From: Candidatus Bathyarchaeia archaeon
Lineage (GTDB): Archaea; Thermoproteota; Bathyarchaeia; Bathyarchaeales; Bathycorpusculaceae
Direction of reading: 5' to 3'
Assembly (NCBI GenBank): GCA_049521795.1
Contig: JBEKOM010000001.1
Span: 320,001 to 384,000, forward strand
DNA: 64,000 nt
In this document: positions 23,652 to 28,976 of the stretch, piece by piece
Layout of the letters: the number at the start of each line of letters is the position of its first letter
How positions within the stretch are numbered: position 1 is the first letter of the stretch
Position numbers and translations under genes: made by a program
Notes under the pieces: model-generated
Told to the model about the DNA's origin: nothing
Databases searched by the model: none
Seen by the model: the letters and a program-made list of their open reading frames with translations, nothing else

Positions 23652-24104
23652 TCAAGTGCTGGTTTGCGTTTGAGCTTTGGCTTGTTGCTCAGGTTCTTTC
23701 GGAGCCGTTTTTTCTTCCTTCTTTTCCTTCGGCTTCTTTCCTTCTTTAGGATGTTTTGGCTTTTCCACGATTTTCGCGTTTACCTGAACGATCTCGTCCG
23801 TTATGACGTTTCCCCGAATGCTTTTGCGTCTCCTCATCCCTCCGTTCAGCGGGTTGAAACCTACGCCGCCGCTGAGAACTATGCGTCGGCGAACACCGCC
23901 ATGTACGCTCGGCCTCATCGGGAACCCGTCCTTGTCGGAGCCGCCCATGATTTGGACCTTGTGTCCTGCGAAATCGACTATTGTTCCGTCTATGACTTCG
24001 CCTATTCTCCTGCCGATCAACGGGGTAGCGCGTGCTTCTTCAAGCTCAACCGCTTTTGATGTTCCCGTTTCGGGGTCTGAAACGATGACTTTGAACTTGG
24101 CCAT
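23652..24104 (-). CDS. rps6e: 30S ribosomal protein eS6
   Basis: FKVIVSDP, GGSDKDGFPM, RRRKSIRGN. Confidence 0.97.
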   Translation of the reverse strand: MAKFKVIVSDPETGTSKAVELEEARATPLIGRRIGEVIDGTIVDFAGHKVQIMGGSDKDGFPMRPSVHGGVRRRIVLSGGVGFNPLNGGMRRRKSIRGNVITDEIVQVNAKIVEKPKHPKEGKKPKEKKEEKTAPKEPEQQAKAQTQTST

Positions 24105-24534: not shown

Positions 24535-25722
24535 ATGTGGCGGCTGGGGTTCTTTTTCCACGAAATGGGGTTCGGATTGCTCTCGATTTTTCTGCCGCTT
24601 TACTTGCTTAGAATCGACGCTGCGAATGGGCTGTTCTACGTTGGGGTAATCACTGCTATCGCTCTCTTCGCGGCTATTCCTGCCTCTTTCTTCTGGGGCT
24701 ATTTATGCGACAGGACACGGCATTATAAGCGTTACATCCTTCTTGCGTTCCTCGCGTCGGCCGTCTTGCTCTGCCTCTTCGCGTTTACGACAGAAATAAC
24801 TTTGCTGATTGTAATATACGCGATAATGTCGATTTTTCACGTTGCCCATGAAGCTCCGAAAAACATTCTCATCTCTGAGCTGTATTCTCATCGAGATTGG
24901 GAGAAGAATTTCGCCTTCTACGAGGGGGTCACGGAAGTCGGGACGCTAATCGGTCTTCTGTTAGGCTTCTTTGCCTCGTATTTTGGGGTTAGTGCGGTGA
25001 ACACCCTTTTTCTCGTAGCAGGGTTGAACTTCGCAGCCTTCGTTCTATCTGCAATACTCGTCGTGGACCCCCCAATGATTTTTGAGAGAAGCTTAGTGAG
25101 CATCGAGAAGACTGTTGACTTCGCGTCTCACGGTGTCTTCCTGGCTTCCAGAATGGTGGACGGCATAGGTCTGGATGAGAAATTGAAAAGAGAGAACGTC
25201 ACAGCCTTCTGCTTCGGACTAGTGCTTTTCTCGCTTGCCACGAGCATACTGTTCACTCCTATGCCCGTGTTTGTGAACAGCATCGCGCCGGCGGGGTTCG
25301 TCTTCGCGATTTTCGTGCTCAATTCCGGGGGAGCTATAGGGGGCTACGCGTTGGCTGGAAAAAGGTCGCAGGGGCCAACTGGAAAAGCCCGCGTGGCCGG
25401 ACTAGTGCTGTTTCGAAGCCTGCTTGCCTTCGTACTTCTCGCCGCCTTGAATCTGTCATCTTTTAACGTTCTGCTGACCACTGGAATTCTAATCGTCATG
25501 GGATTTCTCTTTGCATTCTTTATGGTGACGATTCTTGCTCTATCTATGGAGCTTATACCAGCGGGCAAAGCGGGTCTGATCAATGTTCTGATAGGGCTGG
25601 GAGGAGCATTCGGCTCATTTATCGGCCCTTTCATCGCTCAGGTTTCGGGTTTCCTCCAAGTTTTCATTGTGGCCGGTGCAATATTCTTCGCCGCCTTCGT
25701 CTTCTTCAAGATCTTCGCATAG
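24535..25722 (+). CDS. MFS transporter
   Basis: About 12 hydrophobic segments; WGYLCDRTRHYK matches the MFS motif-A pattern. Confidence 0.85.
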   Translation: MWRLGFFFHEMGFGLLSIFLPLYLLRIDAANGLFYVGVITAIALFAAIPASFFWGYLCDRTRHYKRYILLAFLASAVLLCLFAFTTEITLLIVIYAIMSIFHVAHEAPKNILISELYSHRDWEKNFAFYEGVTEVGTLIGLLLGFFASYFGVSAVNTLFLVAGLNFAAFVLSAILVVDPPMIFERSLVSIEKTVDFASHGVFLASRMVDGIGLDEKLKRENVTAFCFGLVLFSLATSILFTPMPVFVNSIAPAGFVFAIFVLNSGGAIGGYALAGKRSQGPTGKARVAGLVLFRSLLAFVLLAALNLSSFNVLLTTGILIVMGFLFAFFMVTILALSMELIPAGKAGLINVLIGLGGAFGSFIGPFIAQVSGFLQVFIVAGAIFFAAFVFFKIFA

Positions 25723-25749: not shown

Positions 25750-27204
25750 TTACTCGACGTGTACTCTGAAGAGGTCTATGTCTTCTCTCATTTCAGGCGT
25801 TGCTTCGAGGAAGTCTCTCACCGCGTGTTCAACGTCCCTTGATTGTGTCACGTATCTTCCGACGATGATTATGTCAGCGCCTTTTTGCAGGGCTTCTCTT
25901 CCAGTCTCTGGCACTATTCCGCCTGCCACAGCGATCAGAAACTTCTTGTCCTTGAAGGTCTGCCTAATTTCCGGGATGATCTCCAACCCGTGTGTTCTTC
26001 CTGTTTCTTGGTCTATTCCCCTGTGGAGGATGATGATGTCGGGGAACTCTTTGATCGACCTAAGCTTCTTGAGTGCGTCTTCAACGTTCATCATGTCGAC
26101 GACGGCGTATATTGCGAGTCTCTTTGCTTCGTGAATGAACGAGTCGAGTGTTTCAGGAGCTGCCAGTCCCGAGGCGACAACGGCGTCTGCCGTTTCGTCG
26201 TAGGCGAGGTCAACTTCGACTTTGCCGACGTCCAGGGTTTTGAGGTCGGCTACGAAGAAGATGTCCTTGGCCACTTCTCGCAGTTCGTTTATCACTTTTG
26301 TTCCGTATCTCTTGATCAGAGGTGTTCCAACTTCCAGGATTATTCTGTCGCTTCCCGGCAGCTGTGCTATCACTTTCTTTGCTCTTTCTACGTCTGGGTT
26401 GTCAAGCGAAATCTGCAGGTACGGCGGTCTCCACAGGCGGGGCACTTTGAACCCCATTATCGGGTGTCTGGCTCTGTCCTTGTCGTAGAGGATCTTCTCG
26501 AGCGATGGGTACTTTGCTAGGGCCCTTTTTAAAGCCAGCTTGGTGGCTCCGTAGTTGTAGTGATAGATCTTGCGGAAGTCGCTTGCTTGAGGATGCACGA
26601 ATACGCTGGCCACTATGACCCAGTCGTCGATCTTGTCTCTGGGGATTATTCCGTCTTCCACTGAGTCAGCAACAGCTTTTGCGACTGCAGCTTGGGCTGG
26701 TCCAAATATCTTGCCCACGTCTTGAATGTTTTTTATGGTTACTTTGGGCACGAGCAACGTGTGCGGTTTAGGCGGAAGGTTCGGTCTTATGACTGCCAAC
26801 AAGGGCGTGTGTCCCGCAGACAGGTTGCACATTCCTGCTGCAAAAGCAGCTCCGACCGGCCCGTTCTTGTCGCCTATGAGCAGGTCTATGTGTGCAACCT
26901 CGTTTCCCTCTCCGACAAGTGCCTCGCCAATCAAGTATGTGCATCCTGATTCTTCGACAGATTCCGACATTAGATTTGTCGGCAAGCTGTCCGTGATCTC
27001 TTTGAAATCAACATTGAATTCTTTGAGCCACGTGTAAAGCGTGTCCCTGTGAATGTCCAAGGCTTCAGCCGTTCCTAGGACTGTAGGCTTTGTCGGTTTG
27101 ATTCTCGTAACAGTACGGGTTTCGGTGGCTCTCTTGGCAGCTTCCGTCAGCATCTTAACGAGTTCTTCTCTTGTTTCAGGCTTTTTGATGTCGTGTTCCG
27201 ACAT
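25750..27204 (-). CDS. fae-hps: Formaldehyde-activating enzyme / 3-hexulose-6-phosphate synthase fusion with an extra N-terminal Fis-like HTH
   Basis: Fae: [56 protein letters not shown]. Hps: [32 protein letters not shown]-terminus carries [19 protein letters not shown]. Confidence 0.93.
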
Positions 27205-27430
27205 TTCTGACTCACAACTGGTATCTAGCTGTGCATTAGGTATATAAGAGTGTCGGCCACATAGAAGTCAGAAGGACCAATAGCCCTGTGGCCGCCATAG
27301 AACTGTCGCTTTTAGGCTGCATATGAGGTATTCTTCAGGCGCCACCTGTGGTCTCTGGTCGCAAAGTGTCGGAGTTGGAGGGCCGAAGGCATTTCAAGGA
27401 TGGCTAGGTGTCGGGATGTCTGATGTCAGA
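26912..27430. promoter_or_regulatory. Array of TGTCGG/CCGACA hexamers around the fae-hps promoter (TATA TTATATA at 27241-27247, - strand)
   Basis: Exact copies at 26912, 26964, 26977, 27091, 27198, 27251, 27367, 27409; near-matches at 26954, 26988, 27189, 27304, 27417, 27424. Confidence 0.6.
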
Positions 27431-27848: not shown

Positions 27849-28850
27849 CTAGGTTACTCTGAGCTGTTCCACTTCTTCTTTCTGTGGGACTTGAACACTC
27901 AGTGGTTTCTCGCAGCGCTGCTTGCCGAATTTCACTTGTACGTTGCCTTGTTTCTTGTCTGAGTGGTAAGCGGTCAGCTCCGCGGCTTTCTCGATGGCGA
28001 TTCTGGTTTTGGGTCCTTGGAGCAAGGCTATGGGGCTTCCGCAGTCTTGGGCTTCGAAGCAGTAGTCATTCGCATCCTTCATTCGGATCAGGAGCTTGTT
28101 TTCAGTTTCGTTTCTGCCAACTATGATTTTGTTCTTTTCAAACCTGAAGTGTCGTCCAGTTTTCAGCAGCTGCACGTCCTTCAAGGAGACTCTTCTTTTG
28201 TGCTCAAACAGGTCTTTCAGTTTGGCAGCAAATTCCTTGTACGTTAGTAGGCAGCCTCCGCTGGGGCACGAATAGCCAATTACGCTCATCTCTTCTGCAA
28301 GCTTGATCTGCTTCTTTCTTGAGCGGCCCTCGATGCCGAGCAGGGCTTCTCCGTTTACGAAGCCCTTCTCTTCGGCTTCACTCTTCGGCAGCAACCTTGC
28401 AGACAGGGGCCTGAGGACCTTTCCCTTCAAGCCTGCTTTTTCCTCTATTAGGCTTAGAGTTCTTCCATGCTGTGACATTGGTCTTTGACCTAAGACTTCG
28501 CCGGTGATGATGAACCGCGCGCCTGTTTCCTCTGCATACTTCTTGGCCTTCTTCAGCATGAAAATTCTGCAGTCAACGCAGGGGTTCATGTTCTTTCCGT
28601 AGCCAAACCGCGGTTTTCTGACGATCCTGAGGTATTCCTCGCCGACGCTGATCGTTCTCAACGGTATGCTAAGGCTCTTTGCCACTTCTAGGGCTCCGCA
28701 GCCGCCTTTTCCGCAGAGACAGAAGGGGCTCACAAAGTTAACTGCTTCAACATCTATGCCTTGATCCAGCATGAGCTTCACGGCCAGCGTGCTGTCTAAC
28801 CCGCCGGACAGAAGGGCTAGAGCCTTCGTCTTCTTGCCTCTCGAAGCCAT
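27849..28850 (-). CDS. ThiI/MnmA-like PP-loop tRNA thiolation enzyme with DUF814-like C-terminus
   Basis: LLSGGLDS, NPCVDC, GEVLGQRPMSQ, PSGGCLLT, GRHFR. Confidence 0.85.
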   Translation of the reverse strand: MASRGKKTKALALLSGGLDSTLAVKLMLDQGIDVEAVNFVSPFCLCGKGGCGALEVAKSLSIPLRTISVGEEYLRIVRKPRFGYGKNMNPCVDCRIFMLKKAKKYAEETGARFIITGEVLGQRPMSQHGRTLSLIEEKAGLKGKVLRPLSARLLPKSEAEEKGFVNGEALLGIEGRSRKKQIKLAEEMSVIGYSCPSGGCLLTYKEFAAKLKDLFEHKRRVSLKDVQLLKTGRHFRFEKNKIIVGRNETENKLLIRMKDANDYCFEAQDCGSPIALLQGPKTRIAIEKAAELTAYHSDKKQGNVQVKFGKQRCEKPLSVQVPQKEEVEQLRVT

Positions 28851-28976
28851 AGTTTTCACAGCGTTAACACACGCCTTTAACATTCTGACGTATTAATGGG
28901 TTACTCAGAAGCTTCGCACACTAGAAAAAGAGGGTTTGTCAAGGGGTTTATTTTGCCCTTGATCATCCTTCTGGAA

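Follow-up and report, generated by a model that had tools for sequence, protein, structure and literature searches.

The fae-hps gene and its N-terminal extension

We analysed a 64,000-nucleotide stretch (the window) of the genome of a Candidatus Bathyarchaeia archaeon (GenBank assembly GCA_049521795.1, contig JBEKOM010000001.1, positions 320,001 to 384,000 of the forward strand), which contains a gene for the bifunctional enzyme Fae-Hps with an N-terminal extension predicted to form a helix-turn-helix (HTH) domain. The gene is a single unbroken open reading frame (ORF) on the minus strand at window positions 25750-27204, starting with ATG and encoding 484 aa plus stop. A Fae domain (Pfam PF08714, residues 92-250, 234 bits against a cutoff of 27) is followed by an OMPdecase/HUMPS domain (PF00215, residues 261-464, 116.2 bits against a cutoff of 27), the order found in bifunctional Fae-Hps. 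The NCBIfam Fae-Hps equivalog NF009833 scores 579.7 bits (cutoff 274), with residues 90-483 covering positions 2-390 of the 392-position model. Because this alignment begins at residue 90, 89 residues lie ahead of the normal Fae start, close to the 85 or so of the initial annotation, which had also correctly placed them in one frame from an ATG with a TATA box upstream. The Fae domain matches PDB entries 1Y5Y/1Y60 with an E-value of 5e-45, and the Fae-Hps core shows 82% mean column identity across 20 orthologues and 51-65% identity to Fae-Hps from other classes of the phylum. Judged by sequence, the Fae-Hps part is predicted to be a normal, working enzyme. It has the same domains, in the same order and with an equivalog-level score, as canonical Fae-Hps (NF009833/PRK13307, about 392 aa), to which the window gene adds the 89-residue HTH module and a gene-specific 6-mer array in the promoter and 5′ coding sequence. 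The features of the gene are as follows.

25750..27204, minus strand: whole ORF (HTH, linker, Fae, Hps), 484 aa plus stop
26989..27204, minus strand: N-terminal HTH module, residues 1-72, from AlphaFold2 (AF2) models, weak HTH-family matches in 20/20 orthologues and fold matches; in the models a long helix (12-30/33), the HTH helices (42-48, 53-62) and a further helix (67-72)
27019..27051, minus strand: probable recognition helix, residues 52-62, with H52, R53, D54, T55, L56, W59 and E62 invariant in 20/20 orthologues
26938..26988, minus strand: variable linker, residues 73-89, with a predicted local distance difference test (pLDDT) score below 50 at residues 76-88
26455..26937, minus strand: Fae domain, residues 90-250 (Pfam, NCBIfam and PDB match)
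25813..26424, minus strand: Hps domain (HUMPS/OMPdecase fold), residues 261-464 (Pfam, NCBIfam)
27241..27247, minus strand: TATA box TTATATA, -43 to -37 from the ATG (TTAWATA in 89/89 distinct loci)

Several lines of comparative evidence bear on whether the extension is translated. An unbroken match from residue 1-6 through 484 (467 in genome G011) was found in 27 of 41 related genomes, and in three further genomes the match lies in adjacent pieces. All 20 orthologues that we extracted share the start position (17 ATG, 2 GTG, 1 TTG, with Ser always next) and have a TATA box 36-38 nt upstream of it; their aligned extensions show 65% mean column identity and 14 invariant residues. The start codon, TATA box and core peptide recur across about 95 Bathyarchaeia loci. 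The invariant Thr55 is encoded by four synonymous codons (35, 26, 15 and 9 of 85 loci), therefore purifying selection acts on the protein. An annotation artefact, with translation beginning at or near the canonical Fae start, would fit the canonical length of about 392 aa and the in-frame ATG at codon 79 of the window gene, the downstream start in NLMSES that the initial annotation had named as a way in which it could be wrong. This has next to no probability in view of the shared start and TATA spacing, the invariant residues and column identity and the synonymous variation at invariant positions. Moreover, Met79 is replaced by L, V or other residues in other genera, and relatives that lack the extension begin directly at M-[YF]-LIGEAL. 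By these comparisons the extension is conserved and part of the translated protein, the rest of which is a canonical Fae-Hps, and the homologue survey proposed in the initial annotation comes out in its favour.

In a search with residues 1-90 alone, 901 of 1003 candidate protein clusters reached E ≤ 0.001. Every one of the 120 matches listed carries a Fae domain and 119 also carry PF00215; where an entry has a name, it is just Fae/Hps or formaldehyde-activating enzyme. Scanning a single genome for each species gave 327 stretches encoding the extension, and 79 of the 80 loci retained are titled Bathyarchaeota, Bathyarchaeia, Bathyarchaeales or MCG. One locus (L098), with a Bathyarchaeia-type HTH-Fae-Hps and the full promoter element, lies on a contig titled Limnocylindrales bacterium and is probably mis-binned. 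The extension has no paralogue in its own genome, where the search gave a single match at E ≤ 1. A candidate stand-alone HTH ORF in genome G025 was rejected, as the ORF is cut off by the contig end.

The HTH-like peptide reported in the initial annotation is present in the translation, and AF2, run on a 20-sequence alignment, places helices 12-30, 42-48, 53-62 and 67-73 in an HTH arrangement (mean pLDDT 70). In the full-length AF2 model the HTH module is connected to Fae via residues 76-88, whose pLDDT below 50 suggests a flexible tether. Structural comparison with VIA-align ranked an AraC-type protein first (3mkl_B, Z 6.3, root-mean-square deviation 3.1, 63 aligned residues). The P22 small terminase nonamer (3p9a_A) gave Z 5.2 with a deviation of 4.5 over 79 residues, and the other top rows, all HTH DNA-binding domains, include TetR-family proteins and sigma-28; seven chains reach Z ≥ 5 and none Z ≥ 8. 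Three observations weigh against a confident HTH assignment. Foldseek with the HTH model against the PDB found nothing at E ≤ 0.001, the VIA-align Z range of 4.4-6.3 is, according to the tool, common for helical models, and all HTH-family scores of the window protein fall under the Pfam cutoffs.

The family to which the HTH belongs was approached through profiles. GP3_package, HTH_23, HTH_28 and HTH_29 are matched weakly by 20/20 orthologous extensions. With GP3_package (PF16677) the match stays below the cutoff of 29.4, at 16.2-20.0 bits for the window protein, and spans positions 27-69 of the 105-position model; the best E-value among the 20 orthologues is 6.5e-6, and of the 120 relatives listed, 2 have PF16677 in their precomputed annotation. 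When a profile of the extension was run against 1.84 billion representatives, 96 matches reached E ≤ 0.001. Fragments of fae-hps aside, proteins of 126-194 aa with the peptide (V/I)HRDTLYxW(A/L)KE are among them, and all five of those scanned (E 2.5e-7 to 9e-5) pass GP3_package at 62-85 bits against 29.4. As the profile retrieves GP3_package proteins, small-terminase HTHs appear to be the nearest detectable relatives. Against PDB sequences the same profile gave only E ≥ 0.084, the best match being the phage protein 2AO9 (E 0.084). Some short profile matches (e.g. P0144, P0151, P0156) are possibly fragments or frameshifted calls. A further group of profile matches (P0159, P0163, P0169, P0174, P0176, P0177, P0182) comprises proteins of 314-679 aa with 6-7 tandem HTH units related to the extension, two of which (P0163, P0174) match many HTH families.

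Thus, the extension is apparently an HTH related to those of phage small terminases (gp3), and not to Fis or PucR as first proposed. It shares the core (V/I)HRDTLYxW(A/L)KE(F/Y) with the small terminases (PF16677; P22 nonamer 3P9A; 2AO9), and an oligomer, presumed in the case of Fae-Hps, would carry the HTH in either protein. Unlike the terminases, the extension is without the terminase oligomerisation core and is fused to an enzyme in a conserved cellular gene. What survives of the Fis/HTH_8/PucR assignment is the loose pattern A..L.I.R.TLY..L, shared with Fis/NtrC HTH_8 and PucR HTH_30, together with sub-threshold matches. HTH_8 (PF02954) does not match the window protein at E ≤ 1 and matches 13/20 orthologous extensions weakly (best E 0.0056, none over the Pfam cutoff). 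HTH_30 (PF13556) scores 14.2 bits against 27 for the window extension and matches 17/20 weakly, again with none over the cutoff, whereas the other HTH families are matched by more members and with better E-values.

A 6-mer array in the promoter and 5′ coding sequence

The region around the start of fae-hps carries repeated copies of the 6-mer CCGACA and its reverse complement, TGTCGG, which the initial annotation had not noticed. We compared 89 distinct upstream sequences from 95 loci, and used 85 distinct loci for positional and codon counts. CCGACA begins exactly 9 nt ahead of TTAWATA in 89/89 upstream sequences. An inverted copy overlaps the start codon, as (A/G/T)TG TCG G, in 87/89, beginning 49-55 nt, mostly 53 nt, after the TATA-proximal copy. 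Numbered from that proximal copy, occurrences across loci peak at about -53, 0, +53, +160 and +265:

-54 to -52: forward, 36/85 loci
0 (beside TATA): forward, 85/85 loci
+51 to +55 (start codon): inverted, 82/85 loci
+146 to +170: forward, about 100 occurrences, codons 36-41 (KPTKPT)
+260 to +275: forward, about 53 occurrences, Pro-Thr of the linker
+287/288: inverted, 15 loci

This spacing near multiples of 53 bp is suggestive only. The window locus has eight copies within 26912-27414:

27409..27414, minus strand: upstream CCGACA, position -158
27367..27372, minus strand: upstream CCGACA, position -116
27251..27256, minus strand: TATA-proximal CCGACA, position 0
27198..27203, plus strand: inverted copy over the start codon and Ser2 (ATG TCG G), position +53
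27091..27096, minus strand: coding-sequence CCGACA, position +160, codons Pro37-Thr38 of KPTKPT
26977..26982, minus strand: coding-sequence CCGACA, position +274, codons Pro75-Thr76 in the linker
26964..26969, plus strand: inverted coding-sequence copy, position +287, ATG TCG G of Met79-Ser80-Glu81
26912..26917, plus strand: inverted coding-sequence copy, position +339, codons Leu96-Val97-Gly98

At the genome-wide frequency a stretch of 620 nt should contain 0.24 copies; the loci have 3-9 each. The 64-kb window as a whole contains 35 copies, about chance level (26.6 ± 4.6), and the 5′ end of fae-hps is the densest 6-mer cluster of the genome, with 8 copies per 500 nt against 4 for the next best. 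Sites with 4 copies per 500 nt (C64:1156-1621, C32:5832-6177 and C10:46980-47461 of the same genome) may reflect chance or further targets of the HTH.

The combined element CCGACA-N3-TTAWATA occurs once in the 2.44-Mb genome. The 41 relatives contain 29 such sites in 27 genomes, compared with 4 control matches; fae-hps follows directly after 26 of the 29. The sites distant from fae-hps (G016:C16:56723, G035:C39:2673 and G035:C228:3506) read CCGACA-N3-TTAAATA; two of the three are in one genome without a Fae-Hps match to the query used. An open frame begins downstream of each, one encoding a P-loop (GxxGxGKS), and none has the start-codon copy. In other families of the order the element is retained in slightly altered form, either with the TATA box changed to TTTTATA or with CCGGCA, often with added upstream TGTCG(G) copies. 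A search for a wider regulon in the genome found none: ATGTCGG is at 5 of 1836 crude ORF starts, about chance, and there are only 3 CCGACA-N35-65-TGTCGG pairs.

Codon choice under the array is strongly skewed. Ser2 is TCG in 84/85 loci, where TCG makes up 14% of Ser codons genome-wide. Thr41 is ACA in 73/78 and Thr38 in 55/58, compared with 15-48% at five invariant control Thr and 26% genome-wide, and Pro37 is CCG in 54/63, compared with 12-41% at eight of nine control Pro and 69% at one. This bias at Ser2, Thr38, Thr41 and Pro37 indicates that part of the conservation acts on the nucleotide sequence. Two points speak the other way: Pro40 is CCG in only 46/78, a weaker skew, and the coding-sequence copies overlap conserved residues (KPT), so their conservation is partly that of the protein.

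Met79-Ser-Glu of the window protein (26964-26970) is encoded by ATGTCGGAA, the same as at the true start, with CCGACA 7 nt upstream. NTG-TCG-G occurs near codon 79 in about 23/85 loci, and could be an extra operator copy or an internal start yielding an isoform without the HTH.

Since TGTCGG and CCGACA are exactly complementary, the array might instead act in the mRNA, with UGUCGG at the start codon pairing with a downstream CCGACA to control translation initiation. The start-codon copy and the copies at +100 to +119 and +210 to +222 are within the transcript, and codon choice is constrained there. We nevertheless find this very unlikely. The invariant proximal copy and the copies at -53, -116 and -158 are upstream of the TATA box and outside the expected transcript, and pairing would involve only 6 nt of complementarity over a loop of about 100 nt. 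The minimum-free-energy fold of the window RNA from -13 to +135, one sequence, leaves the start unpaired with the downstream copy.

Different fusions and different repeats in sister lineages

To place the extension within the class, we used a class-wide sample in which Fae-Hps was found (E ≤ 1e-60) in 105 of 201 genomes, and sorted the genes by inspection of their 5′ ends:

Long HTH: 40 genomes, 39 in the window's order (one partial) plus G047
Ribbon-helix-helix (RHH)-like extension, about 55 aa: 27 genomes, consensus ...KGLVRAPGRITxEQYxFLExLVxxGRYxSxSEAxRAAI...
Shorter HTH, about 70 aa: 2 genomes, G051 and G073
No extension: 30 genomes, 20 by sequence and 10 from an open frame too short
Unclassified: 6 genomes, partial or at contig ends

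A putative N-terminal DNA-binding module is thus present in 69 of the 99 classifiable Bathyarchaeia Fae-Hps genes of the sample, about 70%, and judged from these genes the long HTH is always present on Fae-Hps in the window's order. Three RHH-like extensions score 18.9, 19.1 and 13.1 bits against RHH_1 (cutoff 20.5), and ParD_antitoxin is matched by 3/3. The short HTH of G073 passes the cutoffs of HTH_7, HTH_23 and HTH_28 (resolvase-type HTH); hhalign relates it to the long HTH with 21% probability over 22 columns. A sequence search with the RHH extension returned 7 clusters, which undercounts the 27 genomes found by inspection.

The promoter repeats differ with the fused domain. In the 160 nt upstream of long-HTH genes CCGACA is found in 88/89 and GTGACAC/GTGTCAC in 0/89; upstream of RHH genes the counts are 0/17 and 17/17, with at least 2 copies in 13. 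Both motifs are absent over the same distance from 20/20 genes classed as extension-less, one of which (L139) is actually a decayed long-HTH paralogue. By eye, repeats are present at 18/20 RHH loci (L147 is truncated), and both short-HTH genes have GCGGCA/TGCCGC repeats on either side of the TATA box. One genome, G137, has two long-HTH Fae-Hps genes (C105:125715-127151 and C94:3770-5245). The second of these, L139, has a decayed recognition helix (IQLDTLY) and a long branch; it has no 6-mer from -300 to +330, and keeps Ser2 with the codon TCT.

These observations bear on two further explanations. In the first, the extension would serve structure or oligomerisation and would not bind nucleic acid, in keeping with its sub-threshold HTH scores and the moderate confidence of the model (pLDDT 70). 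This is highly improbable, as three classic DNA-binding modules (long HTH, RHH and resolvase-type HTH) occupy the same position in different lineages, each accompanied by its own promoter repeats. In the second, a separate transcription factor could bind the array, or the array could include a special B recognition element (BRE) for one TFB, with the HTH tethering the enzyme unspecifically to the nucleoid or docking a partner. The proximal copy, 3 nt ahead of the TATA box, is indeed where a BRE would lie, the link between HTH and motif is a predicted one, and G047 has the HTH without an intact array. We consider this unlikely, because the motif type switches with the type of fused domain, extension-less genes are without such repeats and the paralogue with a decayed HTH has lost all copies. 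In addition, an invariant recognition helix pairs with an invariant 6-mer, and a BRE leaves the copies at -53, at the start codon and in the coding sequence unexplained.

In a maximum-likelihood tree built from 47 Fae-Hps core sequences, every fusion type comes out as one group. Support is 99/94 for the long HTH of the window's order, which G047 joins at 86/41, 93/64 for the RHH group and 95/93 for the short HTH, nested among extension-less genes. The decayed paralogue L139 is nested within the long-HTH clade, and the surviving outgroup is extension-less. The tree used 21 of about 95 long-HTH loci; a motif filter dropped 5 of 52 rows, including 4 of 5 outgroups, and rooting relied on one long-branched outgroup plus midpoint. 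As HTH and RHH are different folds, there were at least two independent fusions, and three fusion events would be consistent with the core tree.

Fae-Hps as a candidate autoregulating enzyme

Taken together, we lean towards HTH-Fae-Hps being an autoregulating enzyme-repressor of the PutA/BirA kind, a reading drawn from sequence comparison that we rate as somewhat probable. The initial annotation had suggested that the protein binds DNA. That part of the proposal now appears probable, because a gene-specific 6-mer array lies at the gene's own promoter and unrelated DNA-binding domains are fused to the same enzyme in sister lineages. By sequence and model, the protein has the make-up of a trigger enzyme, in which an intact enzyme and a DNA-binding domain share one polypeptide. 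In the mechanism that we propose, Fae-Hps gained an N-terminal, flexibly tethered, terminase-related HTH, which would most likely recognise CCGACA. Fae is a homopentamer, and the two solved Fae entries in the PDB hold 10 chains. Since Fae domains form oligomers, several HTHs would be present per particle. One Fae-Hps oligomer could then hold several CCGACA copies together, over the TATA box and transcription start, and the bound particle would block TBP/TFB or polymerase and so repress its own gene. Recognition of CCGACA by the HTH, repression as the direction of control and the oligomeric state are what we infer. A response of DNA binding to formaldehyde, tetrahydromethanopterin (H4MPT), ribulose-5-P or hexulose-6-P, of the kind suggested in the initial annotation, is speculative.

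A more far-reaching version of this autoregulation is possible though doubtful. Here the oligomer, with its terminase-like HTHs on sites phased at about 53 bp from about -160 to +340, would wrap the promoter and 5′ coding sequence repressively. The first 100 codons would be shaped by operator and protein function alike, KPTKPT would be a by-product of tandem CCGACA, and occupancy would follow C1/pentose-phosphate status, with a possible internal start at codon 79. Bathyarchaeia would have arrived at such a fusion three times, using different DNA-binding folds.

Several observations count against autoregulation through the array. The motif is short (6 bp), the distance between its arms varies from 49 to 55 nt, and the phasing of about 53 bp comes from few positions and may be numerology. 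Some loci deviate: G047 keeps HRDTLY yet has only aCGACA-N3-TTTTATA and an ATGTCA start, G026 is without the start-codon copy, L009 and L014 deviate at the start, and the RHH locus L162 has no GTGACAC in about 220 nt upstream. As each fusion type is a single clade, the covariation of domain and motif amounts to about three gains and one loss. Finally, a pentameric Fae and a dimeric RHH would present a symmetry mismatch.

PutA represses its own operon via several short sites, and its switch consists of flavin reduction and membrane binding; this switch has no known counterpart in HTH-Fae-Hps. BirA dimerises in response to its ligand and in that form binds a palindromic operator, whereas the window gene has a dispersed 6-mer array and a larger oligomer is presumed. 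PutA is described as a trigger enzyme, a metabolic enzyme with an N-terminal RHH gained only in some lineages, and BirA as an enzyme with an N-terminal HTH that is both enzyme and repressor (PMC8449670). Gamma-proteobacterial PutA resembles the window protein in having an N-terminal DNA-binding domain on a metabolic enzyme, and in sister Bathyarchaeia it is an RHH that is joined to Fae-Hps; BirA, an HTH followed by a biotin ligase, resembles the window protein in having an N-terminal HTH on an enzyme. In contrast to PutA, where an RHH is joined to a proline catabolic enzyme, the window gene involves another enzyme, archaeal hosts and an HTH. Enzyme-regulator fusions are thus of a known kind, and what is unusual is the set of three convergent fusions and the putative operator copies inside the coding sequence.

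Literature searches on Fae-Hps/Bathyarchaeia and on enzyme-HTH fusions, with subscription journals and supplementary files outside their reach, found no description of the three-domain form, in line with the initial annotation, and database names refer only to Fae/Hps. By title and the start of the abstract, the papers listed on Fae-Hps in Bathyarchaeota are metabolic or community studies. In sediments, peat and soil, Bathyarchaeia rank with the most abundant uncultured archaea, and to our knowledge almost nothing is known of their gene regulation. The window gene offers a candidate regulator-operator pair for a central pathway, the one that makes pentoses and handles formaldehyde via H4MPT. 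That three fusion types each form one group on the core tree suggests strong selection for direct feedback on Fae-Hps. The putative operator copies in the coding sequence would be a clear example of a protein code and a DNA code that overlap, and the kinship with phage terminase HTHs, if true, would mean that a metabolic enzyme recruited a viral DNA-binding module.

The fae-hps gene is probably transcribed alone. The downstream ORF (24535-25722, plus strand) is convergent, and the nearest minus-strand ORF upstream of fae-hps ends at 27849; a run search turned up no RNA sequencing runs matching window positions 26800-27400. Judged from their translations, the neighbouring ORFs resemble a multi-pass membrane transporter (24535-25722, plus strand), ribosomal protein S6e (23652-24104, minus strand) and a PP-loop (SGGxDS) ATPase (27849-28883, minus strand). 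One PDB chain, 8ub7_B, has 290 residues and the name 'Avd' (9 entries, 45 chains); its residues 129-286 match Fae with E 1e-44, and it is possibly a fusion engineered onto a Fae scaffold. The genome also has a second Fae copy (contig C2, L021:1513-2991, minus strand), which forms the C-terminal part of a 492-aa ORF whose N-terminal 300 or so residues resemble a DapA/DHDPS-family aldolase, judged by reading. Open frames of about 490-545 aa surround this second Fae paralogue in most relatives, and the DapA-like/Fae fusion seems to be conserved.

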